Below are positions 7,217-64,000 of a stretch of 64,000 bases of DNA, in pieces. The stretch comes from Candidatus Thorarchaeota archaeon. GTDB taxonomy: Archaea > Asgardarchaeota > Thorarchaeia > Thorarchaeales > Thorarchaeaceae. A model generated the notes under the pieces. The model searched no databases. It was not told the origin of the DNA and was given only the letters and a program-made list of their open reading frames with translations. Every line of letters begins with the position of its first letter. Within the stretch, counting starts at the first letter, position 1. The position numbers were made by a program, and so were the translations under genes. The DNA is taken from contig CP070761.1 in the NCBI GenBank assembly GCA_020348985.1, positions 1,317,647 through 1,381,646 on the forward strand, given 5' to 3'.

Positions 7217-7417
7217 AATCAAAGCGCGCTGTTAGGGGTATCTTTTTCTGTGCATATAGTGTAGACCGCGCAACCGTGAGATGTATATCCAGATATACTG
7301 GCAGTATTACGGGTGTGTTACCAACCGCTAAGATGGGATATATTCCCTTGATAATCGGGGTAGACACGCCAAAAGGCATGCGAAAACGACACTCATAACA
7401 CCGGAAGGGAACGGATC

Positions 7418-10400
7418 TTGGTCTTCATTGACAAGCTTGTTTGCAAAGGCTTCAAGTCATTTGGCCGAGAGACCGTTACTATAAGATTGAACCCCGGTTT
7501 CACTTGCATTGTTGGCCCGAATGGTTCCGGAAAATCAAACGTTGTCGATGCAGTGTTGTTCGTCCTAGGCCAGTTAAGCGCCAAAACACTTCGAGCAAAC
7601 GTGTTCTCTGATCTCTTGTACTCTCCGCCGAAGCCTGATATGCCCCCAAGGGCCAAAGCCGCCTCTGTGGAGCTTCATTTCAACAACACCGATAGAAAGC
7701 TCCAGATAGAAGCAGACAAGGTCGTAATTGAAAGGGAGCTGGACGAATCAGGAAAGTCTGTTTGTAGGATAAACGGCAAGACAGTCACAAGAACCCAAGT
7801 CTTGGAGGTTCTTGGCAGCATCGGCGTCGATCCTAATGGGTACAATCTCGTGCTTCAGGGAGAGATAGCACAGATTGTCAAGGTAAGCCCAAATGACAGA
7901 AGGAAGCTCATCGAAGAAATCGCAGGGATATCTGCATATGATGAGCAAAAGGAGCGCGCCATGAAGAAACTTGCAGAGAGCGAGGCCAATCTTGGCAAAG
8001 TAGACATGCAGCTTCAGGAACGACGACGACAACTTGAGAGGCTAGAGCTCGAGAGAACCGATGCGCTACGCTACAATAGCATTCAAGACCAAATCAGGCA
8101 AATCAAGATTGACAATACTGCATGGAATCTAATCAAACAGAAACGACGAATAGAGGCAATCGATCATACTCTTCAACAGCGTGCCGTTGAGGCAGAGAAT
8201 CTGCAAAATCAGACCAAAGAGATCGAGAAGGGGATACTAGAAAGCGAGGCAGAGATAGAGGACATTGACGCTGAAGTCGATAGAATTGCCGGTGCAGATG
8301 CAAAGCTTGTTTCTGAGCAATACGGTCTAGTATCAGCTGCTCAGGACCATGCCGCCGCTGACCTCGATCGTGCAAAGAGTGAGTTCGATAGAACTTGGCA
8401 AGAACGTGAGAGCCTTGAGGGAGAGCTAAGGTCCGTAAAGGATGAGATAGAGCAATCAGAACAACAGATAGAGGAACAGGAAAAGAAGCTCTCTAGATTG
8501 GATGTTGAGATTGAGGAGACCTCTAAGGAGGTTGCTAGATTGGAGTCCAGACTGGAGAATGAACAGTCTTCGCTTCTCGAAGCAACTCACAGACTTCAGG
8601 ACCTCAACAAACAGATGGCTGCTTTGGATGAAGGAGTGTCAGAGGTACGGTCAGCCCTCAAGTCCGACAGGCGCGAACTTGGCCTTGTATACGAAGAACT
8701 CCAAGATACTGAGGAAGGATTGAGAAAGACGTTAGCCGAGCTTGAGGAGCTAGATGATATCTATCCTGCCAAGAGGACCAAGCTCGAGGAGGCAGAGGAA
8801 ACAGAGAAAGCTAAGCGCGCCGAGCTATATGACATTGAGGAGCGTCTAAAGACTGTTGATGCAGAAGTAAGAGAATCATCAAAAGTAGTTGGCTCGGCAC
8901 GGGATGAGCTCATTAGATTGGAGGCCCGGAAAGAGGCACTCCGGGAAGCCGAGGAGGCATTTCTGAAGAGGAGACGGGCCATTGCGAAAGTGCTGGAATT
9001 GAGGGATTCTGGAACAGTTGCAGGCATTTTGGGCACTGTAGCAGAACTTGGTACGATAAACCCGGATTATGCAGTGGCTTTAGAAGTTGCGGCCGGAAAC
9101 AGGCTTTCTCACATTGTTGTGGAAGATGAACACGTAGCAACTGAATGTGTAAACACTCTCAAGCGAGAACGGGTCGGTCGATCTTCTTTCATTCCTCTGA
9201 GTAAGATAAAGACACGCGCTCCCGGAAAGCCAGTCAAGGAAGAGGGTGTTGTCGGCTACGCACTGGACCTTGTGAGTTTCGATTCCAAAGTGCGGCCTGC
9301 TTTCGAGTTTGTATTCACAGACACTGTTGTGACTGAAGACTTTGAATCCGCAAAGCGGCTTGGGTTTAAAGGCAGAAGAGCAGTTTCGCTTGATGGAGAT
9401 CTTGTCGAAAGATCCGGATTAATCACCGGGGGACATTATCAGAGAGTAGCTACAGGGTTGTCGTTGCAGGAAGAGGATAGAAGTCCTGATGTAGCAGAGC
9501 GATTGGGCGGACTTGAGGAGATACTGGAATCTCTCAAGACTCAACAAGAAGACCTTAGAAAGCAGAAATCGGTTCTTGATCGCGAGCTTCAGGACCTTTC
9601 GAAGAAGAACTACAGAGACAGAATGGACCTCGAGAGGATTGAGGAGAGCCTTGAAGAAAAGAAAACCAGGGTCGTCACCCTGGAAGAGAAGCTTGAAAGT
9701 TCGAAAGCGTTGACGAAAGCACTTGAACAGCAAATATCGGAACTCCAGGAACGTGATACGGAATTAACGGCTCATCGAGAGGACGTACGCTCCAGACGAG
9801 ACGGCGTCAATGAAACTCTTGTCAAGTCTGATGTAGCGAACATCACTCAAGAGGGCAAAGATCTGAAGGAAATCCTTGAACACTATAAGCGTGAGAGAGA
9901 GACTCTTCTCGGTGAGATTACTGGATTGAGAGTTGGCTTGGATGAACGACTGAGACCCCGCATGGACGACTTGGATGGTCGGCTCAAGAAATTCAACGAT
10001 TTGCTGCCGACATTGGAGAAAGATGTCAAAGATCTCGAAGGCAGGCTAGCGGAGAAACAGAAACAGTTCGAGGATTTGAAACTCGAAAGGGAACGGATTG
10101 ACGGAGCAGTCAAAGACAAACGTGTCTACCAGTTGGAATTGAAGGAGAAACTCCGGAATCTAAGACTCGAACTCGAGGAGACAAGAGAAAATCAGACCAA
10201 CAATGAGAAGGCTGTCTATAGGCTCACAAGCGAGAGAGGGCGATTGGAGACAGACTCCGTAGCATTGTTTGCTGAACTGGATTCATTCTGTGAGGCGCAG
10301 GAAGAAGTCAGCAAGAGAGAGCAAAAGGAGGAGCCTACTCGTAGAGAAATTGACAACATGGATGAGAAGATTCTCGAGCTACAAAGAGAGCTTGAAGCGA

Positions 10401-37051: not shown

Positions 37052-37156
37052 GCCGCCGTGGCTCAGTAGGTAGAGCGACAGCCTGTTATCGTACGGGCTT
37101 TTGCTTGAACGACAGAGAGTTGTTGGTCGCAGGTTCGAGCCCTGCCGGCGGCGCCA
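37052..37156 (+). tRNA. tRNA-Asn (GTT) with 29-nt intron at 37/38 (37089-37117)
   Basis: GCCGCCG acceptor stem; bulge-helix-bulge formed by the CTGT/ACAG helix with TAT and AGA bulges; CCA encoded. Confidence 0.95.
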
Positions 37157-55611: not shown

Positions 55612-56418
55612 CTAGAAGAGGCTGAACATTGGGAATGGCCAGAATAACCCGAGGAAGGGTAGTAGTAGCACCATTATAATGGTAACTATAGTTATAGTCA
55701 GGTTATCAAAGCCCTTAGGTGTTATTGCCTCAATAATCATTGCCACAAGACTCACGACTATGATTGGCAGAATCAAGTCGACAACAGAGAAGGTAGCCAC
55801 CTCGAGTGAGAATAGGAACACTAGGATGAAGCTGAACAAGAATGATCCAATGAACATCCCAATCATACCAGCAAGTGACTTCTCAGCACCACCAATTCCG
55901 AATTTCCTCTCGCCACCATACTTGCGTCCAATCACGTCGGCAAATCCATCTCCACCCGCCAAGCATCCGAAGACAATCAACGCCAACGGAGTTGCATTGG
56001 CCAGATCGCCATCGACGGGAACGTAGAACCATAGGATTCCGATGACCACCATCATGAATGCGTAGTAAAGCGTGCCACCAAGAAGTTCTCGGGGATCTCC
56101 GCTTCTTGACATCGAACGTACAAAGTCCTCATTCTCGGTCTTTCCAGTCCCAATCATGACAAACTGCAGGACGAATATGAGCGGGACTATAATGGCCAGC
56201 CAGCGGCTGAATATACTACCGGAGAAGAGCATCCACGTGACTACCCATACTGGGGCTGCAAATGTGTGAATGACTTTCCGTGTTACTACAGTTGAGAGCT
56301 TACCACTCTTCTCAATTGCTGCATTGATCTGTACGAGCATCAGTATCAAGACAAACGAGATCACAAATGCTACAATGTCCCAGACCAATTCCCAGCCTGG
56401 TAAAGGATTGAAAACCAA
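55612..56418 (-). CDS. Membrane CTP-dependent phytol/polyprenol kinase family protein
   Basis: RKVIH, SMSRSGDPRELL.G.LYY, GDGFAD..GR, KS.AG, DNL. Confidence 0.88.
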   Translation of the reverse strand: MVFNPLPGWELVWDIVAFVISFVLILMLVQINAAIEKSGKLSTVVTRKVIHTFAAPVWVVTWMLFSGSIFSRWLAIIVPLIFVLQFVMIGTGKTENEDFVRSMSRSGDPRELLGGTLYYAFMMVVIGILWFYVPVDGDLANATPLALIVFGCLAGGDGFADVIGRKYGGERKFGIGGAEKSLAGMIGMFIGSFLFSFILVFLFSLEVATFSVVDLILPIIVVSLVAMIIEAITPKGFDNLTITIVTIIMVLLLPFLGLFWPFPMFSLF

Positions 56419-56588
56419 GATTCTCTTCCTCCCTTTTGAACACGATAGAATTTAGATAGCGTAAGAAGGGCGAGATAAAAGTCTGATTGAAATGTGAATT
56501 CGTCAACTAACAAGGAGGAGTGTCATAGCTCTTTGTTGATTGGAGGAAGAAAGGGAGTCTGAGAGCCGGGTAGACTCTCACTTGCTCA

Positions 56589-56608
56589 CTTGGAACACGT
56601 GTTCCAAG
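56589..56608. promoter_or_regulatory. Perfect 20-bp palindrome
   Basis: CTTGGAACACGTGTTCCAAG in a divergent intergenic region. Confidence 0.5.
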
Positions 56609-56706
56609 GATTGGTTGCTTGCCAGTGTTGCGTTCATCGAAGCCACTAAATCAGTAAGAAAGCGAAATCCCGTCGTATATTCCGTGTGAAAACGGGAGGT
56701 AAAGAA

Positions 56707-57567
56707 ATGAATTTTGTGAGGACAGGTGAGCTCAGGCCGAATGCTCTTGAAGTCCCAATTGAGATAAGCCCTCTAGAAGAGATTGACAGATTGACACTCA
56801 AGCGTCTGAATCACCTTCTAGGGTTCATCAAAGAGAGGAAACCGGAGATTCTGCGTGAGTTCGTCGAGGAATTGACTGGAGAGCTCCTGAATCAAGCAAA
56901 GGAGGACTATGCCATCAGAGATGTGCTTGATCTAGATGATGTTCTATCCGGGCTCCCCCTTCTGCAGGAACACGTTGACTTGACCGTGGCTCTACTCAAT
57001 TACTGCTTCGATGTGCTCCAATTGCCCCAAGGAACAGAGTGGCTGGGTAAGAAGGTCAGTGTTTCCACACGAGCCGATTTGAGATCCTTTCTACTCCCTA
57101 GATACAACAATCTCATGGCTTTGGTCGACATTGTTGGTAGAGAGGATGCGATTGCGTTCTACAAGCGGTTCTTCACACAGTATCTCGCAGACACAAGAGA
57201 TCCAGATAGAAAGATATACGATAGTTTAGAGGACCTGTATGAGGAGAGATCTAGAGAGACCGAGGAACCATCGGCATGGGTAGTAGTCCGTGGAATGCTT
57301 TCGGATGGTAAGTACGCTTTTCGGAACGACAACTGCCTTTGGGTCGACGCTCTAGAGGACATAGAAGACTCCGAGCTGAAGTATTACATTTGCTGCTATG
57401 GTGATTATGAAGGAGCGAAAGCGCACAATGAGAGCATAGTGATGACGATGGAACATACCATTGCAGAGGGCAACCCCTATTGCTCTCGAGTTCTTCATGA
57501 CACTCGTGTTGATTGGAATCTAAGGCATCCTCCAAAGGAGTTTTGGGATAAAATGGGGAAGACTTAG
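56707..57567 (+). CDS. L-2-amino-thiazoline-4-carboxylic acid hydrolase-like protein
   Basis: C-terminal NCLW...ICCYGD...TIAEG.PYC pattern; GGAGG RBS. Confidence 0.75.
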   Translation: MNFVRTGELRPNALEVPIEISPLEEIDRLTLKRLNHLLGFIKERKPEILREFVEELTGELLNQAKEDYAIRDVLDLDDVLSGLPLLQEHVDLTVALLNYCFDVLQLPQGTEWLGKKVSVSTRADLRSFLLPRYNNLMALVDIVGREDAIAFYKRFFTQYLADTRDPDRKIYDSLEDLYEERSRETEEPSAWVVVRGMLSDGKYAFRNDNCLWVDALEDIEDSELKYYICCYGDYEGAKAHNESIVMTMEHTIAEGNPYCSRVLHDTRVDWNLRHPPKEFWDKMGKT

Positions 57568-58614
57568 TCATTCCAATGTCTTCAGATGCCGTTTGAGATC
57601 CGTAGCCGCCCTGTTCAACCACTCATTAGATTGGTCTGCACTGCCAGGATAATGTAGAGCTCCTGCTTGTGCCCAGACCATTTCTTGAGCGTAACGGGCA
57701 GCTATGAAGAGTTCAATATACTCTAGTTGAGACTCCGGAAACGCTTGAATCTCTTCATATCCTTCCAAGAGAGCCTTCTTCATCCTTGGACTTGTGTCTT
57801 TGAAGTCGCTAATGTAGTGAGCAAGAGGAACCGCAATATCGAAAGCCCAGTATCCGTACCCGCTGTCATCGAAGTCAATTGGTCTTGCACGTCCTTTGTG
57901 AAAGAGAACATTAGCGTCCAAGGCTATGTCTGCATGGATCAGTCCATAGACCTTGCGACCCTTCCCAATCTCGTCAATGAGATCCTGAATTCTCTCGATG
58001 ATTCTTACAAAGTCAGGTTGATGTTGCTTCGGAATCGTTTCTCGTACCTTTTGGGCAGGAGGATCGAAGCCAGCACCATCACCATAGAGACCTTCCCAGT
58101 CCCAATGACGGCGCGTGAACCGTCTAGGTGGTTTCCAAGTTTGAGCTTGTTTATGCATTGCTGCCAGGGTTCTACCTATTGCCTTGAAGTGTATGGGCGT
58201 TATGCCCTTGGTGATGTTCCTCCCATTAATCCATCGGAGAAGTGTACAGTTGCGTGGACGTAGGGAGGCGTTTTCTTCCTCTGTTGCTGTAACCCAGTGG
58301 CCGTCTAGATTCCGAATGGGCTGCGGCACCTCGATACCTTCAGAACTAAGTGCAGACAGCCACTCTAGCTCGGAAGTGATGTGTTCGAAACTCATGTAGC
58401 CAGGTTGATGAAGTCTCAGAGTGTATCGCCCTGGTACAAATGGTTCATCCGACTTTAGTGAGGTCGGGATATCAACACGATACAGTCCGTTTCCACTGTA
58501 ATTGATGAATTTGAGCTTTGCATCTTGAAAGCCATATGCATAAAGTGCACTCTTTGCTAACTTCCTTAATCTTCGTAGGAATTGAAGACGTGTTACTTGC
58601 TGATTTGCTGCCAT
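57568..58614 (-). CDS. Aminoglycoside phosphotransferase / type II homoserine kinase family
   Basis: ELEWL, GLIHAD....NV, IDFDD.G. Confidence 0.9.
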   Translation of the reverse strand: MAANQQVTRLQFLRRLRKLAKSALYAYGFQDAKLKFINYSGNGLYRVDIPTSLKSDEPFVPGRYTLRLHQPGYMSFEHITSELEWLSALSSEGIEVPQPIRNLDGHWVTATEEENASLRPRNCTLLRWINGRNITKGITPIHFKAIGRTLAAMHKQAQTWKPPRRFTRRHWDWEGLYGDGAGFDPPAQKVRETIPKQHQPDFVRIIERIQDLIDEIGKGRKVYGLIHADIALDANVLFHKGRARPIDFDDSGYGYWAFDIAVPLAHYISDFKDTSPRMKKALLEGYEEIQAFPESQLEYIELFIAARYAQEMVWAQAGALHYPGSADQSNEWLNRAATDLKRHLKTLE

Positions 58615-58928
58615 GTATGTCACCCTGAGATTGTGGTTTTGGCTACGACCCACTATGCGGGTTGGTCCTGGGAAAACGGAACTTCCTAAAGAAACAGCTC
58701 CAAAACCAAAGATTCACCCACATACAGGATCAGGTTTGCTGTTCTGCAATAGCATTAGAACCTCATCGTTCGTGGGCCTCGAGACGTCAAGTTCGCGATT
58801 GCAATATAACTTGGCTGTTCAACGCCATGAATTTGAAGCTAGGACTTCCTGTGTATCTGGTTGATGACACGTTGCATGGTTCGAAAAAGTAGATTAGTCA
58901 TAGATTGAGAGCCCTTGTGGAATTAAAG

Positions 58929-59852
58929 ATGAAAAACGACGGAAGTCCAAGTCGATTAGTCATCGACACTAATTCTACAGAGGATGACACTAAGGCCGTT
59001 CAGAAGGGATTGGTAGATTACAACAAGACGCATCCGGGCGGCGACCTGGACATTCCCACTCCTGATATTAGTCTAGTCTTGAAAGAAAAAGACAGCACAG
59101 TTGTTGGAGGGGTAATCACAAGCATGTTGACAGGTGTCATGCATCTCGAGGTCCTGTGGGTGGATGACAAACATCGACGGCAAGGTTACGGAAGGGATCT
59201 TGTGCTACGAGCTGAGGAAATCGGAAAAGCAAAGGGCTACAAGACCTCGCAAACGTGGACCTTTTCGTTTCAGGCGCCTGACTTCTACCAGAGCATTGGT
59301 TACGAGGTTTTGGGTGTCTTCGATGGATACGTTGACGGGATTACCGAGTATGTTCTCATGAAGAGACTGAAGAAAGACCACAAGACCAGTAGTGGAGACA
59401 GTAGTGTGCGAGGAAATGCTGGCTCTGATAGACTTGAGATTTTCGAGGATGCAACAGACGAGAGCATGAGAGTCGTTCGCAAGGGTCTTGGAGAATACTT
59501 CAGTGAGCACGTTGGTGAACTGCAGAAACAGAATCCTGAAGTCAAAATCAGGCTGGCCTTGAAGAATGACAAAGGACGGGTCCTTGGTGGCATTGCTGCT
59601 GCGACGGTTCTTGGAACAATGGCGATTGAGCATCTTTGGGTGGATGAGCGATATCGTGGTCAAGGTTACGGGAGAGATCTTCTCTTGGCGGCGGAGAGAA
59701 TAGCAAGGGAGAATGGCTGCATATCCGGGCAGACCTGGGTGTTGTCATTTCAAGCCCACGAGTTCTTTCGAAAACTTGGTTATGAGGAGTTTGGAGTCTC
59801 TGATGGATATCCCAATGGGATAAGAGAGTTCTATTTCATCAAGAAGTTCTAG
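58929..59852 (+). CDS. Tandem GNAT acetyltransferase
   Basis: Two LWVD..R.QGYG..L / SFQA..F...GY domains. Confidence 0.92.
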   Translation: MKNDGSPSRLVIDTNSTEDDTKAVQKGLVDYNKTHPGGDLDIPTPDISLVLKEKDSTVVGGVITSMLTGVMHLEVLWVDDKHRRQGYGRDLVLRAEEIGKAKGYKTSQTWTFSFQAPDFYQSIGYEVLGVFDGYVDGITEYVLMKRLKKDHKTSSGDSSVRGNAGSDRLEIFEDATDESMRVVRKGLGEYFSEHVGELQKQNPEVKIRLALKNDKGRVLGGIAAATVLGTMAIEHLWVDERYRGQGYGRDLLLAAERIARENGCISGQTWVLSFQAHEFFRKLGYEEFGVSDGYPNGIREFYFIKKF

Positions 59853-59976
59853 ATTCGTCACGAATTACTATCCATTGGATGATGGCAGTCCCGGAATAGT
59901 TCATTGTTTGAACTATGATGTAGATTATGTCCAGTAGAGAACTAACATTTACCAAAGGGCAGGAGCGTGTGTCTGC

Positions 59977-60414
59977 GTGGCTACTGAGAAGAATTCCATG
60001 TCAATCCGGCTCAATTCAACAAAAGGCGCAGAAAGCCTTCATTGGTTGGACGAGGGTTTGGATGATGTGTCAGGTGGAAGTGCCCGTAGATTGCGTAGAA
60101 TTCAGTTGCTCACATTACCGTTTGCTCCATTCTTCGTAGCCATATCATTCGCATTGGGATTCGAGTTGGCACTTACGATTGTGATCTTTCTTACTGTGAT
60201 AAGTGTCGAATCCCTTGTCTTCCACCCTCAGGATTTGCATGAATGCGGCCCGAATTTGTGGACAGGAGAATCAGTAGACTGCTCGAGACGGCTCAGCTAT
60301 GCCGAAGAAAAGGGAGTTGAGCAATCCAAAGAAGACGTTCTTGTGACGGTTCCATATCTCTATGTGATACTATCCAGATTCAGACGGAGCGGCATGCGGG
60401 AGTCCAGAACTTGA
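59977..60414 (+). CDS. Hypothetical two-TM membrane protein
   Basis: Hydrophobic hairpin; weak coding evidence. Confidence 0.45.
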   Translation: MATEKNSMSIRLNSTKGAESLHWLDEGLDDVSGGSARRLRRIQLLTLPFAPFFVAISFALGFELALTIVIFLTVISVESLVFHPQDLHECGPNLWTGESVDCSRRLSYAEEKGVEQSKEDVLVTVPYLYVILSRFRRSGMRESRT

Positions 60415-60442
60415 CATGAACGAGATTTGGAATGAATTGAGA

Positions 60443-60464
60443 TTACAGGTCAGATGGGATTCGA
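60443..60464 (-). repeat. Strongly decayed tRNA 3'-end fragment
   Basis: ttacaggtcagatgggattcga, 15/22 identical to the 63053 copy; mismatches are mostly transitions. Confidence 0.5.
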
Positions 60465-60501
60465 TTTCTTCACTTCTGATTGGTATGTGATTGTGTGTCC
60501 C

Positions 60502-60918
60502 CTAAGGAGTACTTTCGAGGCTATCAGGTGAAGGATAAATCTTGCTAACAATTCTCCACTGCTCGTCTACTTTTAGCATATGATAGAAATCAACATACTT
60601 CTCTTTTGTAACGCCTCCATCACCAAACCACAAATCGACTATGACGGAAGCTGCATTGCCTATAATCTTGATTGACCGTATCTCAAACCTACCCCATTCA
60701 TCAACAGGATTCTTGCCCGCCTTGATCATCTCTTCCCGCATTTCTTTCCAATGATCCCTCGCAACCCAGCTAAGTCCACCAGTTCCAACACCAATGCTCA
60801 TTCCATCTTCATAGAATACTTCGCTTATCTTATCATAATCCAGAGTTCGCAGTCCGTCAACGAATATTCTGAGAACCCGCTCAATGTTCTCTTCATCTCT
60901 TGTCATGATGGAAACCAC
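60502..60918 (-). CDS. NTF2-like (lumazine-binding-like) protein
   Basis: I.I.GNAASV...YVD..HMLK....WRIVSK. Confidence 0.85.
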   Translation of the reverse strand: MVSIMTRDEENIERVLRIFVDGLRTLDYDKISEVFYEDGMSIGVGTGGLSWVARDHWKEMREEMIKAGKNPVDEWGRFEIRSIKIIGNAASVIVDLWFGDGGVTKEKYVDFYHMLKVDEQWRIVSKIYPSPDSLESTP

Positions 60919-61115
60919 GTGAGAGTAACGCCTTCTGTGATAAGTTCTCAGTGGTCAGAGCAAGTAAGTCAGTATGATTATGAAGGAATGTAAGGCGGGC
61001 TGGATAGTGGGCTATGTGTGATTAGAGATATGCGACAGCATTCAGGCTTCGTTGCGATTGCTCTATTTGATGATGAGATTTATCTGTGGGAGTTTGATTA
61101 ATCGTTGGACGCTGT

Positions 61116-62099
61116 GTGAGCCAAATGATAAAGACAGAAGTAACAGAGATGCTGGGATGCAAGTATCCGATTATCGCAGGAACCATGGCAAGAATTTCTA
61201 ATCCTGAGTTTATTGCAGTCGCTAGTAATGCTGGCGCCTGTGCCGTACTAGCCAGTGCAAATTACGGATCGCCTGATGAACTACGTGATGCAATCCAAAA
61301 GACACAGTCCCTTACGAATCAGCCATTTGCTGTAAACATCAACCTGTTCCCTGCTTTGATGCCTCAAGACAAGCTAGAAGACTATGTGGATGCTACACTA
61401 GCTGAGGGCGTGAAGATCATTGAAACAAGTGGTCACAAAGCTCCAGAGGATTTGGTTCCCAAATTCAGGGATGGAGGCGCCATATGGATTCACAAATGTG
61501 CAGGAGTAAGATATGCGAAGAAGGGGGCGTCTCTGGGTGCTGACATAGTAACGGTTGTTGGATATGAGAATGGTGGAGCGACCGGGGTTTTAGACATTGG
61601 GACTATGGTTATGACTCCTTCAGTAGTTGATGCCCTTGATATTCCGGTAATTGCTGGAGGCGGAATATCTGATGGTAGAGGCATTGCTGCAGTCTTGGCA
61701 CTAGGTGCAGAAGGTGTGATAATCGGTACAAGACTGATGGCTACAAAAGAGTGTCCCATTCATGACAATCTGAAACAAGCTTTCGTTGAAGCAGCGGAAA
61801 CTGATACATGTCTAGCTCTGCGTTCTATTCAAAATACACACAGAATATGGAACAACAAGGCAGCGCAGCAAGTGCTCGAGTTAGAGGCTCAGGGAGCATC
61901 CCTGTGGACTCTCGTTGACGCTGCCTCTGGAGAAAAAGCAGAAGAAATGTACAGGGAAGGAGATATTGACCTCGGGATTGTAGCTTGTGGTCAAGGTGTA
62001 GGCTTGATTAATGACATTCCATCAGTTAAGGAGCTGCTGGATAGAATGATGGTTGAGGCAGAGGAGGTAATCTCCAAACTAAATATAATAGCCAACTAA
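61116..62099 (+). CDS. Nitronate monooxygenase / FabK-like flavin oxidoreductase
   Basis: YPII, PFAVN, PVIAGGGI.DGRG, GTR, GQGVGLI. Confidence 0.92.
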   Translation: MSQMIKTEVTEMLGCKYPIIAGTMARISNPEFIAVASNAGACAVLASANYGSPDELRDAIQKTQSLTNQPFAVNINLFPALMPQDKLEDYVDATLAEGVKIIETSGHKAPEDLVPKFRDGGAIWIHKCAGVRYAKKGASLGADIVTVVGYENGGATGVLDIGTMVMTPSVVDALDIPVIAGGGISDGRGIAAVLALGAEGVIIGTRLMATKECPIHDNLKQAFVEAAETDTCLALRSIQNTHRIWNNKAAQQVLELEAQGASLWTLVDAASGEKAEEMYREGDIDLGIVACGQGVGLINDIPSVKELLDRMMVEAEEVISKLNIIAN

Positions 62100-62147
62100 T
62101 TTCGTGTTTTCCATCAAGCTCGGATATCGAGAGAGCTAAGAGACAGA

Positions 62148-62173
62148 TGACGGGCCAGGTAGGATTGGGACCT
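62148..62173 (-). repeat. Decayed tRNA 3'-end fragment
   Basis: tgacgggccaggtaggattgggacc, 19/25 identical to the 63053 copy. Confidence 0.7.
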
Positions 62174-62257
62174 ATGAACTACTTTGTGGTTTAGCTTGAC
62201 ATGAAAAGGGATAAGAAGCATGCCAATTAGTCTAAAGCCATAATTGGCGGGCTGAAC

Positions 62258-62980
62258 TTGGACTGGAAGCTGATTGCTCAGAGACTAGCAGCGTTGGTAT
62301 CATCATTCATAGTCTATTTGCCGATAGTTGCAGGAATACTGACACCAATGATTTGGGTACTTGCTGCATGGTACGTTTCTTGGTACGTCTTCCTCTGGAT
62401 ATTCCCTTTCAGTGAGATTTGGGGGGGCTTTTGGTGGCCATTCCAAAGTCCAGTTTTTGGCCTCATGTTGTGGCTCGTAGAGGCCCTAATCCTTGCGATT
62501 GGCCTGATGCTGTTTCTCTTTGCCTTGAAGGAAATAGTCGAAGCAAGACGTCGAGGAATGGGCATTGTTACTTCGGGCTTGTACAAGTACGTACGGCATC
62601 CTCAGCATCTAGGAATCATGTTGATGCTCCTGCCTTTGGCCCTGACCAACGTTTTTCAGCCCGCACAGTGGTGGGGTGGCATAAGACCTGGAGACCTTCT
62701 CTCTTGGTCATTCGTAGCTTTCCTTCTCATCATTATAGCAGATCTTGAAGAGACACGGCTATTAGCTCTCTTTGGTCAGGATTACGAAGACTATGCACAA
62801 AGAACACCATTCATACTGCCGAAAGTTAATCTGTTATCCTTCATTCAGAGTAGTTCTTTATCGAGAGGAAAACCTCTGAGGTATATCTTGGCATTTGTGA
62901 TATTTTGGATCTTGGCTTCTCTAATGCTCTTTGGATTTACTCTCGTTGAGCTTGCATATCCCTTTGGAAGCAATCTATAG
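62258..62980 (+). CDS. Isoprenylcysteine carboxylmethyltransferase (ICMT/PEMT)-family membrane protein
   Basis: TSGLYKYVRHPQ, EE..L...FG..Y..Y...TP. Confidence 0.88.
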   Translation: MDWKLIAQRLAALVSSFIVYLPIVAGILTPMIWVLAAWYVSWYVFLWIFPFSEIWGGFWWPFQSPVFGLMLWLVEALILAIGLMLFLFALKEIVEARRRGMGIVTSGLYKYVRHPQHLGIMLMLLPLALTNVFQPAQWWGGIRPGDLLSWSFVAFLLIIIADLEETRLLALFGQDYEDYAQRTPFILPKVNLLSFIQSSSLSRGKPLRYILAFVIFWILASLMLFGFTLVELAYPFGSNL

Positions 62981-63052
62981 CAGGTCCGTGCTCGGCCAAG
63001 GCTACTCGAGAAGCATGCCTTGGAGAATGCCAAAATCAGAGAACAGGTGTAA

Positions 63053-63077
63053 TGGCGGGCCGGGTGGGATCCGAACC
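63053..63077 (-). repeat. tRNA 3'-end fragment (T-arm, acceptor strand, CCA); Lys- or Arg-like
   Basis: Minus strand reads GGTTCGGATCCCACCCGGCCCGCCA; no anticodon or D arm upstream. Confidence 0.85.
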
Positions 63078-63169
63078 TTCAACGATGATTGCCCTGTTGT
63101 TCTAATGGAATCGTTCAGCTGTCTTATATGGAAACATACCAAGCTGGGCACGGCTGGAGGAGAGATTAG

Positions 63170-64000
63170 ATGAAACATGATGCAGTTCTGGTGTGTGTCT
63201 TGCTGCTTGCAACTGCTTTGAATGGATGGATTGGACCTTTGTCAACACAGCAAGCTAATCCTGAATGTGTGAATCTAAATTCGCAATCCTATGTTGAGCA
63301 TGGGGCAATTCATATCACTTCTGACGCCGACTTTGAAAATCAGGCATGGCCGGGAAATGGAACTGAGGATAATCCGTATCGAATAGAGGGGCTCAACATC
63401 ACAACTGATTCGGTCTGTGTCAACATCACCGGAACGAATGCGTTCTTTGTCATTCAGGATTGTCTATTCGCTTCTAGTTCCAACGCCGACTACTCTGGGG
63501 TCCATCTGACCAATGTCAGTCACGGTACGGTCAAGGAATGCACAATCACAATGCTGGATTCAGGAATTTCCATCATTGACTCTGTGTCGATTGACATAAA
63601 GAGCAACACGATATTCGATGTCCAGAGTGCAATCTCCTCTTGGGGGCTGAATGCGTGCAATATCTCTCTTAATGAGATATACAATTGCACATGGGGTATC
63701 CAATCTTGGTTTGCAAATGACACTCTATTAACACATAACACAGTCTACGACTACAGGCTCTATGGGTTCATGGTGGGCGGACCAGGTTCAGATAACATTG
63801 TTGCATACAATGATATTCATTCCTCAAAAGACCAGTATTCTGAAGCAGCAATTTTGTACGACAGCCCGGCCTGGGTCATTGAGCACAATTCAATTCATGA
63901 TTGTTTCGAGGGGATTGAGATATGGTTCAGTGGATGGATGTCCGGGAAGATGATCATACGAGAGAACAGCTTCCAAATGGTGACAAACACTTTCGATATC
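63170..64000 (+). CDS. Secreted NosD/beta-helix surface protein, truncated by the window end; paralog of 32316-34700
   Basis: ATG 63170 after GGAGG; signal peptide, HGAIHITSDADF..QAWPGNGTEDNPY, then beta-helix repeats. Confidence 0.88.
   Translation, partial: MKHDAVLVCVLLLATALNGWIGPLSTQQANPECVNLNSQSYVEHGAIHITSDADFENQAWPGNGTEDNPYRIEGLNITTDSVCVNITGTNAFFVIQDCLFASSSNADYSGVHLTNVSHGTVKECTITMLDSGISIIDSVSIDIKSNTIFDVQSAISSWGLNACNISLNEIYNCTWGIQSWFANDTLLTHNTVYDYRLYGFMVGGPGSDNIVAYNDIHSSKDQYSEAAILYDSPAWVIEHNSIHDCFEGIEIWFSGWMSGKMIIRENSFQMVTNTFDI

Follow-up and report, generated by a model that had tools for sequence, protein, structure and literature searches.

Copies of a tRNA-Lys(CTT) 3′ end bound mostly single-gene units at a variable chromosomal locus of Candidatus Thorarchaeota

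Integrase-less units that are flanked by att sites and stacked at the 3′ end of a tRNA gene are known as cis-mobilizable elements (CIMEs). They are presumed to be moved in trans, and they adjoin or derive from an integrase-bearing integrative and conjugative element (ICE) or integrative and mobilizable element (IME) at the same site. For archaeal chromosomes, gene capture by SSV-type/pNOB8-type integrative elements was reportedly described by She et al. in 2001. In the tycheposon islands of Prochlorococcus, repeated integration at a tRNA pushes older inserts inward, scatters partial tRNAs, and brings in adaptive cargo (10.1101/2020.12.28.424599). Here we analyze a 64,000-nucleotide (nt) stretch of a Candidatus Thorarchaeota genome (the window, G000:C1:1317647-1381646, where G000 is the genome under study), in the last part of which accessory genes are separated by copies of a tRNA 3′ end. 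No account of such arrays in Asgard archaea turned up in literature searches. An original prediction, made from the letters of the window alone, had listed seven same-orientation copies, three of them as much weaker candidates, and proposed serial gene capture at a tRNA. Four of the seven are real tRNA-end fragments, and sharper stacks, of 0 to at least 10 cassettes, occupy the corresponding locus of dozens of related genomes. Window positions 60400-64000 probably form the tRNA-distal portion of an island of accreted cassettes with tRNA-Lys(CTT) as its anchor, built by serial att-type insertion of integrase-less cassettes that would have been mobilized in trans.

For the scoring of candidate fragments, a 33-nt weight matrix was derived from 36 fragments, none of them from G000, and applied to the whole of G000 (6.28 million positions). 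The accepted fragments are as follows.

63053..63077, minus strand: fragment 1, the final 25 nt of a gene of the tRNA-Lys(CTT) type; 33.3 bits, rank 1 in the genome
62148..62172, minus strand: fragment 2, 19/25 identical to fragment 1; 25.5 bits, rank 8
60993..61029, minus strand: fragment 3, decayed; 7.1 bits for the matrix site at about 60999-61031, with 0.1 such matches expected per 7.6 kb
60443..60467, minus strand: fragment 4; 18.3 bits, rank 23 of the 6.28 million positions

Read on the minus strand, 63053-63077 is GGTTCGGATCCCACCCGGCCCGCCA, which comprises the T-loop, the 3′ arm of the T-stem, the 3′ strand of the acceptor stem, the discriminator G, and CCA. Full tRNA-Lys(CTT) genes of relatives from the same order end in this 25-mer with 2 mismatches, and the repeat is the 3′ end of tRNA-Lys(CTT), from about position 54 to 76 with CCA included (the last ~23 nt). 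Of the two types that had been considered for it, Lys and Arg, it is Lys. The 5′ half of the tRNA is missing upstream of 63053, so this copy is a fragment. An intact intron-bearing tRNA at 63053 was considered and excluded, as the 5′ half is nowhere in the assembly (ARAGORN with introns allowed, Rfam tRNA, and blastn); the same searches found neither 5′ nor 3′ halves of the relatives' tRNA-Lys(CTT) elsewhere in G000. With up to 6 mismatches allowed, the 63053 25-mer matches only true tRNAs, itself, and 62148-62172 across the genome, a scan that also reproduced the 19/25 identity reported earlier. The score of fragment 2 exceeds those of nearly all non-tRNA sites, and all sites outscoring 60443 genome-wide are tRNAs or tRNA-like fragments. 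Acceptance of fragment 3 rests on a position-by-position alignment with the fragments located behind the nitronate monooxygenase (NMO) gene of two relatives (G062 and G019). Scores are far above background for three sites, and the fourth is supported by positional homology. The remaining proposed copies, at 59882, 58655, and 56561, have background scores and are unsupported as fragments. All four real sites lie on the minus strand, the top plus-strand score in the region is -2 bits, and an Rfam scan of 54-64 kb gave chance-level matches only. The expected leftward increase in decay holds roughly in the window (33, 26, 7, and 18 bits) and is not monotonic in relatives. The last 10 bases of all fragments, TGGCCCGCCA, form a 4+4 dyad (TGGC-NN-GCCA), which could be a protein-binding or crossover core.

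From the contig end inward, the genes between and next to these fragments are the following.

63170..64000, plus strand: NosD/right-handed beta-helix protein, secreted (cassette gene 1; Pfam NosD), truncated by the contig end
62258..62980, plus strand: ICMT/ERG4-like membrane methyltransferase (cassette gene 2; Pfam), between fragments 1 and 2
61125..62099, plus strand: nitronate monooxygenase (Pfam NMO), between fragments 2 and 3
60502..60918, minus strand: NTF2-like / putative lumazine-binding protein (Pfam Lumazine_bd_2), between fragments 3 and 4
59977..60414, plus strand: open reading frame (ORF) of 145 amino acids (aa), family unassigned

Pfam confirmed the earlier gene calls (NTF2-like, nitronate monooxygenase, ICMT-like, and beta-helix). 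Fragment 2 lies 49 nt past the NMO stop codon, and a fragment beside NMO at this position is also present in G056, G019, G057, G059, G052, and G038. Fragment 3 bounds the NMO cassette ~90 nt upstream of the NMO start codon, and fragment 4, which closes the NTF2-like cassette, lies 29 nt past the stop codon of the 145-aa ORF. The beta-helix protein is 26% identical to the beta-helix cassette of G057, and beta-helix cassettes recur in related arrays. The G+C content of the four tRNA-proximal genes is 0.43-0.46 (0.429 for the NTF2-like gene), compared with a genome mean of 0.481 +/- 0.018.

The tRNA that anchors these stacks is seen in the relatives, which are Candidatus Thorarchaeota metagenome-assembled genomes (MAGs) from at least five genera, the published SMTZ1-45 and AB_25 among them; all genomes used here are MAGs, 52-99% complete. 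Across the family, the locus has a syntenic order of SHMT (divergent), a small ORF, tRNA-Lys(CTT), cassettes, NMO (antisense), variable genes, and a housekeeping block, the same block that lies in the window at 53.6-56.4 kb. SHMT, TrmO, a Kelch-repeat protein, and small ORFs flank the tRNA, and between 0 and at least 8 cassettes separate it from NMO. In G071, G007, G020, G057, G041, G038, and G019, the locus begins with a complete tRNA-Lys(CTT), behind which 3′ fragments of the same sense are found. The tRNA points toward NMO in G038, G019, G057, and others, in agreement with the original prediction, which placed a minus-strand tRNA beyond the right edge. Fragment counts in the related arrays are listed below.

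G062, contig C82: ~11 same-sense fragments in 10.7 kb
G056: 4 fragments
G032: at least 8 fragments
G057: full tRNA and 4 fragments
G020, G007, G071, and G041: full tRNA and 1-3 fragments each

As a strand control, 290 kb of loci were oriented by the sense of the tRNA, and matches of at least 12 bits numbered 81 in sense versus 6 in antisense. Eighty loci anchored on NMO gave 104 sense versus 4 antisense matches, and NMO loci of other Asgard classes and of bacteria gave no weight-matrix matches. An empty site is present in G075 (L054), in which the NMO stop codon lies 28 nt after the CCA of tRNA-Lys(CTT).

Genes are gained and lost at this locus with boundaries at the fragments, as had been anticipated. 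One fragment of G056 is a hybrid, the left flank of which matches G062 fragment 7193 and the right flank the decayed G062 fragment ~8213; between those two fragments G062 has two additional units compared with G056, a precise indel. The NMO unit is common to G000, G062, G056, and G019, with differing neighbors, and its homology among G000, G062, and G019 stops right after the distal fragment. A homologue of the 145-aa ORF stands directly after the post-NMO fragment in G062, and G000 has the NTF2-like gene and fragment 60443 in between. Since G062 lacks this intervening unit, the NTF2 gene together with fragment 60443 is an extra unit in G000. Depending on the genome, the slot on the tRNA side of NMO holds one of at least six unrelated genes or none. 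Cassettes also change rank: cassette family 4 is located before NMO in G038, G015, and G027 and after NMO in G059, and the ATC_hydrolase family supplies the cassette nearest the tRNA in G057 and the gene farthest from it in G000. Gene order is accordingly not a conserved block, as synteny with the same-genus G010 stops at ~56400 and the slot by NMO varies. The tRNA-anchored, serial gene-capture reading is supported, since none of the tests that had been preset to refute it, as far as they were run, went against it.

The fragments originated as DNA, as can be read from the introns of the tRNA. Family tRNA-Lys(CTT) genes have 0-3 introns of ~28-30 nt each, and most of these genes are missed by ARAGORN. 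Examples of such genes are given here.

L025 15002-15150 (G010)
L030 ~9560-9756 (G038)
L031 ~7340-7527 (G041)
L054 (G075)

One intron may sit in the T-loop, and its position there (53/54 or 56/57) coincides with the 5′ limit of the fragments. Fragment G041:10380 still includes ~22 nt from a T-loop intron like that of G038 and G019, the gene of G041 itself having a different intron, and many internal fragments start with CAA|AAATCCC, in which CAA is an intron 3′ end. In T-stem and acceptor, the G007 fragments correspond to a G057-type tRNA and not to the resident gene. Because they contain intron sequence and non-resident tRNA types, the fragments are copies of tRNA genes, some of them from other lineages, which speaks against an origin by simple duplication of the target site or by priming from mature tRNA. 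If cassettes arose by tRNA-primed reverse transcription, the antisense fragment in the 3′ untranslated region of a cassette mRNA would be the primer-binding site for tRNA-Lys, and the complementary DNA would be inserted behind the tRNA gene. Such a route would fit the inclusion of CCA in the repeat, a repeat boundary near tRNA position 57/58, and the 64% of ORFs that are antisense to the fragment with the stop codon beside CCA. It is largely refuted by the intron sequence, which marks the fragments as derived from the gene and not from mature tRNA; moreover, CCA is genomically encoded in the tRNA genes recovered, cassettes retain upstream noncoding DNA, 36% of ORFs have the other orientation, and no reverse transcriptase was found in G000, G062, G056, or G038. 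We give this explanation next to no chance of being correct. T-loop introns were also considered as a shield against insertion, and no association was seen among the few loci viewed by eye; arrays were found behind tRNA genes with zero, two, or three introns. A separate intron-bearing gene, tRNA-Arg(ACG) at window positions 37052-37156 on the plus strand, is detected only with introns allowed and is missed by a default scan.

The anatomy of the units was determined from 55 intervals between consecutive fragments, which we call cassettes. Their median length is 947 bp (range 320-3053 bp), 43 of the 55 contain one ORF, and 85% of cassette sequence is coding. Relative to the fragment, 45 ORFs (64%) are antisense and 25 (36%) are sense. 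Where the only gene of a unit is antisense, its stop codon follows CCA by a median of ~21 nt and its start codon is ~80 nt from the next fragment, and the ~80 nt upstream of cassette start codons are AT-rich. A promoter motif scan upstream of cassette genes gave no clear TATA signal; the cassettes probably carry their own promoters. Their cargo includes GNAT acetyltransferases, methyltransferases, ATC_hydrolase-like proteins, beta-helix and beta-propeller surface proteins, kinases, small membrane proteins, and unknowns, and the large or recurrent ORFs, examined as recombinase candidates, encode beta-helix, PD40 propeller, methyltransferase, acyltransferase, peptidase, SMC-like, and, in one case, TnpB-like proteins. 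On a metagenome contig that also has NMO and a reverse-oriented fragment, a 691-aa TnpB/Cas12f-like ORF (L066 3712-5787, minus strand) adjoins a tRNA-Lys-type site.

The conserved part of the site runs from tRNA position 54-57 through CCA and ~9 weakly conserved, pyrimidine-rich bases. It corresponds to the 3′ strand of the T-arm and acceptor stem, with the pairing partner missing. Terminal inverted repeats were not detected in the units (score 7.0 versus 7.16 for the control), and fragments with their flanks showed no hairpin or excess folding (mean minimum free energy z = -0.17, n = 67). In E. coli, tRNA-linked repeats terminate in a duplicate of the tRNA 3′ end, and the present repeats might likewise be functional RNA or regulatory elements, such as 3′-processing or termination signals or small RNAs, that resemble a tRNA end by chance. 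Such elements would fit the good conservation of the 3′ 19 nt, which extends to the distal sites, and the pyrimidine-rich trailer after CCA. We nevertheless judge this very improbable: the fragments mark indel boundaries, carry foreign intron ends, enclose protein genes of both orientations, and have no excess secondary structure at the 67 sites folded, and Rfam is blank in the region.

The events at the locus are, we infer, site-specific recombination. The mobile unit would be a small DNA, circular or linear, in which a gene, or in some cases two, is preceded by AT-rich DNA, a possible place for its own promoter, and accompanied by a copy of the last ~23 nt of the tRNA. The recombination partner of such a unit would be either the 3′ end of the tRNA gene itself or an earlier copy of the site. 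Insertion would restore the tRNA and leave the displaced 3′ fragment behind the new cassette, so that a stack of tRNA, cassette, fragment, cassette, fragment, and so on would result; recombination between fragments would also lose or exchange cassettes. The stack in G000 would then read, from the tRNA side, beta-helix, 63053, ICMT-like, 62148, NMO, ~61000, NTF2-like, 60443, and 145-aa ORF, beyond which would follow older accessory genes whose flanking sites have decayed past recognition. The enzyme would act in trans and would be encoded by an unbinned mobile element or by an unrecognized host gene.

Several observations weigh against this reading. The G000 assembly, with 35 tRNAs present, has no tRNA-Lys(CTT). 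The tRNA is inverted relative to NMO in the same-genus genomes G010 (L025) and G011 (L036), so either tRNA strand is possible in G000. It is likewise inverted in G052 (L059), G074 (L058), and G009 (L057); among the genomes with an inverted tRNA, G011 (one) and G052 retain fragments in the standard sense and G010 has none, which suggests inversions between oppositely oriented sites. Not every interval has been recently mobile, as NMO and some distal genes are conserved residents. The original prediction had counted NMO among the serially added cassettes; NMO is a conserved resident of the locus and not a recent arrival, with 80-90% aa identity in at least 50 family genomes. That identity was also considered as a sign of recent transfer (80-90% across genera versus 42-56% for a housekeeping neighbor), and the argument was rejected, since identity is still 76-79% in other Asgard classes and NMO is therefore a slowly evolving protein. 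The absence of an integrase from the window, reported earlier, extends to the entire genome, so that the stand-alone tyrosine recombinase that had been envisaged elsewhere in it was not found: PF00589 proteins, even of the Xer type, are absent from the whole of G000, G010 (98% complete), G062, and G056. They occur in 29/86 family genomes, never on an array contig. The SSV-type integrase (PF16795) was absent from the five genomes tested, as were serine recombinases and Cas1 (the five here including G062, G056, G057, and G032), and reverse transcriptase was found only in G010. Two scans of viral contigs for an attP-type site returned only unrelated phage tRNA genes, and no circular form of a cassette was seen. 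Searches of arrays, genomes, and viral contigs yielded no helper element with a cognate integrase, MAGs usually being without extrachromosomal elements. Because all genomes are MAGs, the absence of an enzyme is weak evidence, and the simplest answer is that it resides on an unbinned plasmid or virus.

The origin of the units bears on two further explanations. Multi-kb, integrase-bearing elements (proviruses, plasmids, or tycheposon-like elements) could have integrated serially at tRNA-Lys(CTT) and later been deleted to one cargo gene and a partial tRNA each, in which case no single gene had ever moved as a unit of its own. Islands of Prochlorococcus are a documented case of successive integrations with partial tRNAs left dispersed (10.1101/2020.12.28.424599), tyrosine integrases are sporadic in the family as counted above, and other G000 tRNAs also have a displaced 3′ copy 0.9-1.4 kb downstream. 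Pfam scans of ~70 cassette ORFs revealed no integrase or integrase remnants, however, and the units are strikingly regular in their median length, their predominantly single ORFs, and their tight spacing to both flanking sites. As one cassette family is found at different ranks and indels take whole units exactly at sites, such island decay appears unlikely.

Alternatively, after an initial seeding the units could have been propagated by host homologous recombination, with circles popping out between repeats, moving between cells, and re-entering in Campbell fashion at the 23-nt identity. This would need no recombinase of a standard class, and none is found in array-rich genomes. It would also account for the perfect 23-nt copies that are mixed among decayed ones in G062, as gene conversion would give, and for the intron ends in fragments, which come from outside the tRNA exon and which a fixed crossover point would not transfer. 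Identity over 23 nt is very short for homologous recombination, though, and neither the origin of the first duplications nor the weak conservation of ~9 nt after CCA is explained, so we regard recombinase-free propagation as distinctly improbable. An extension of the cassette-accretion reading is that Thorarchaeota possess a dedicated capture platform analogous to an integron, in which the 3′ end of tRNA-Lys(CTT) would serve as both docking site and cassette site and self-expressed single-gene cassettes would circulate between lineages. The enzyme would then lie outside recognized integrase classes, as no tyrosine, SSV-type, or serine recombinase, Cas1, or reverse transcriptase was detected in array-rich genomes. 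We put this forward tentatively and consider it doubtful.

On this platform reading, similar arrays at other G000 tRNAs would suggest that the mechanism is general. A second stack at C1:493099-497637 has four minus-strand fragments resembling tRNA 3′ ends (19-26 bits, one 7.9; GGTCCACCA / GGCCCACCA types), with single plus-strand ORFs of 426, 441, and 475 aa between them. The tRNA of G000:C1:1795292-1796257 has a 41-nt repeat of its 3′ end 890 bp downstream, with a single 234-aa ORF in between, and tRNA-His at G000:C1:248999-250511 has a 33-nt 3′-end repeat 1.4 kb downstream. On another metagenome contig (L076 5305-7771), an intron-bearing tRNA-Val(GAC) is followed by two ORFs (acyltransferase and unknown) and then a perfect 23-nt fragment of the Lys type; use of this site may extend to further tRNAs whose 3′ ends are alike.

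Beyond the 145-aa ORF, the variable region of the window continues to the last gene that is syntenic with G010.

58905-59852, plus strand: double GNAT (Pfam)
57568-58653, minus strand: APH-type kinase (Pfam)
56686-57567, plus strand: ATC_hydrolase-like protein (Pfam)
55612..56418, minus strand: last gene syntenic with same-genus G010, the inner boundary of the variable region

The weight matrix finds no fragments between the distal accessory genes (56686..59852), and homologues of the ATC_hydrolase-like and GNAT genes occur within arrays of other genomes. At the other side, the region is cut by the assembly. G000 is a scaffold of contigs with 131 runs of 100 N as joints, and the true contig end is window base 64000, within the beta-helix gene. 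Scaffold bases 64001-64100 are N, and the DNA past this gap is another, unrelated contig, so the sequence right of 64000 is not readable. The exact 41-mer from the contig end had no match in metagenome contigs. SHMT, the usual neighbor of the tRNA, is also missing from the assembly. Contigs of many MAGs, like that of G000, end 0-3 kb from NMO on the array side, and the array appears to be a systematic assembly breakpoint; strain-level variability would cause contigs to break often inside it.

The instance in the G000 window is real but eroded, and its value is as a pointer to a family-wide system. Asgard genomes are large and flexible, and gene uptake by these archaea bears on models of the origin of eukaryotes. 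The locus is a concrete, family-conserved hotspot of gene acquisition with a series from empty to filled sites and a 23-nt signature, present also in MAGs published long ago. It offers a tractable system for finding the recombination machinery, and if that machinery is not a known integrase, it would represent a new route of gene capture in archaea. Such a hotspot explains the assembly breaks at the locus and provides a marker for strain-level variation.

Among known systems, casposons and CRISPR-type duplication share with the arrays the insertion at a tRNA 3′ end, target duplication, and a repeat-insert-repeat arrangement. The arrays differ in having no terminal inverted repeats and no Cas1 (five genomes) and in fragments that differ from the resident tRNA, unlike a target-site duplication. 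SSV-/pNOB8-type elements likewise have an archaeal host, duplicate the 3′ portion of a tRNA as att, and leave captured genes in the chromosome, but their integrase is present whole or split into int(N)/int(C), whereas PF00589 (G000, G010, G062, and G056) and PF16795 (five genomes) gave no matches here. CIMEs match the arrays as integrase-less, att-flanked units at a tRNA 3′ end that are presumed to be mobilized in trans; in the present case no helper is seen, and the units are single genes that number up to about ten. As with tRNA-targeting integrative elements, a direct repeat of the tRNA 3′ end flanks the insert and the tRNA is intact (G071, G007, G020, G057, and G041), but those elements encode their own integrase, of which the ~70 cassette ORFs contain none. 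Tycheposons resemble the arrays in serial integration at a tRNA, displaced partial tRNAs, and accessory cargo, yet they are multi-kb elements with a tyrosine recombinase and replication modules, whereas the units here are ~0.5-2 kb with no integrase found.

Integrons, including sedentary chromosomal integrons and clusters of attC sites lacking integron-integrases (CALINs), also have a fixed platform and cassettes that mostly hold a single gene and end in a short recombination-type site. Their cassette content varies among relatives and changes at the sites, and their cargo is similar (GNATs, methyltransferases, small enzymes, and unknowns). Integron-like behavior is seen here in whole cassettes gained, lost, and moved at sites, as at the G062/G056 junction, the NMO-unit boundary, the empty site of G075, and in the changing ranks of cassette families. 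The arrays differ in having no IntI, attI, or Pc, the genes beside the tRNA being SHMT, TrmO, Kelch-repeat, and small ORFs; in an anchor that is a tRNA gene; and in a site that copies a tRNA 3′ end in linear form, where attC is an imperfect palindrome that folds. Their cassettes face both ways (45 versus 25 ORFs), whereas integron cassettes are promoterless and co-oriented from Pc. Failing every defining feature of an integron, the array is integron-like in its behavior.

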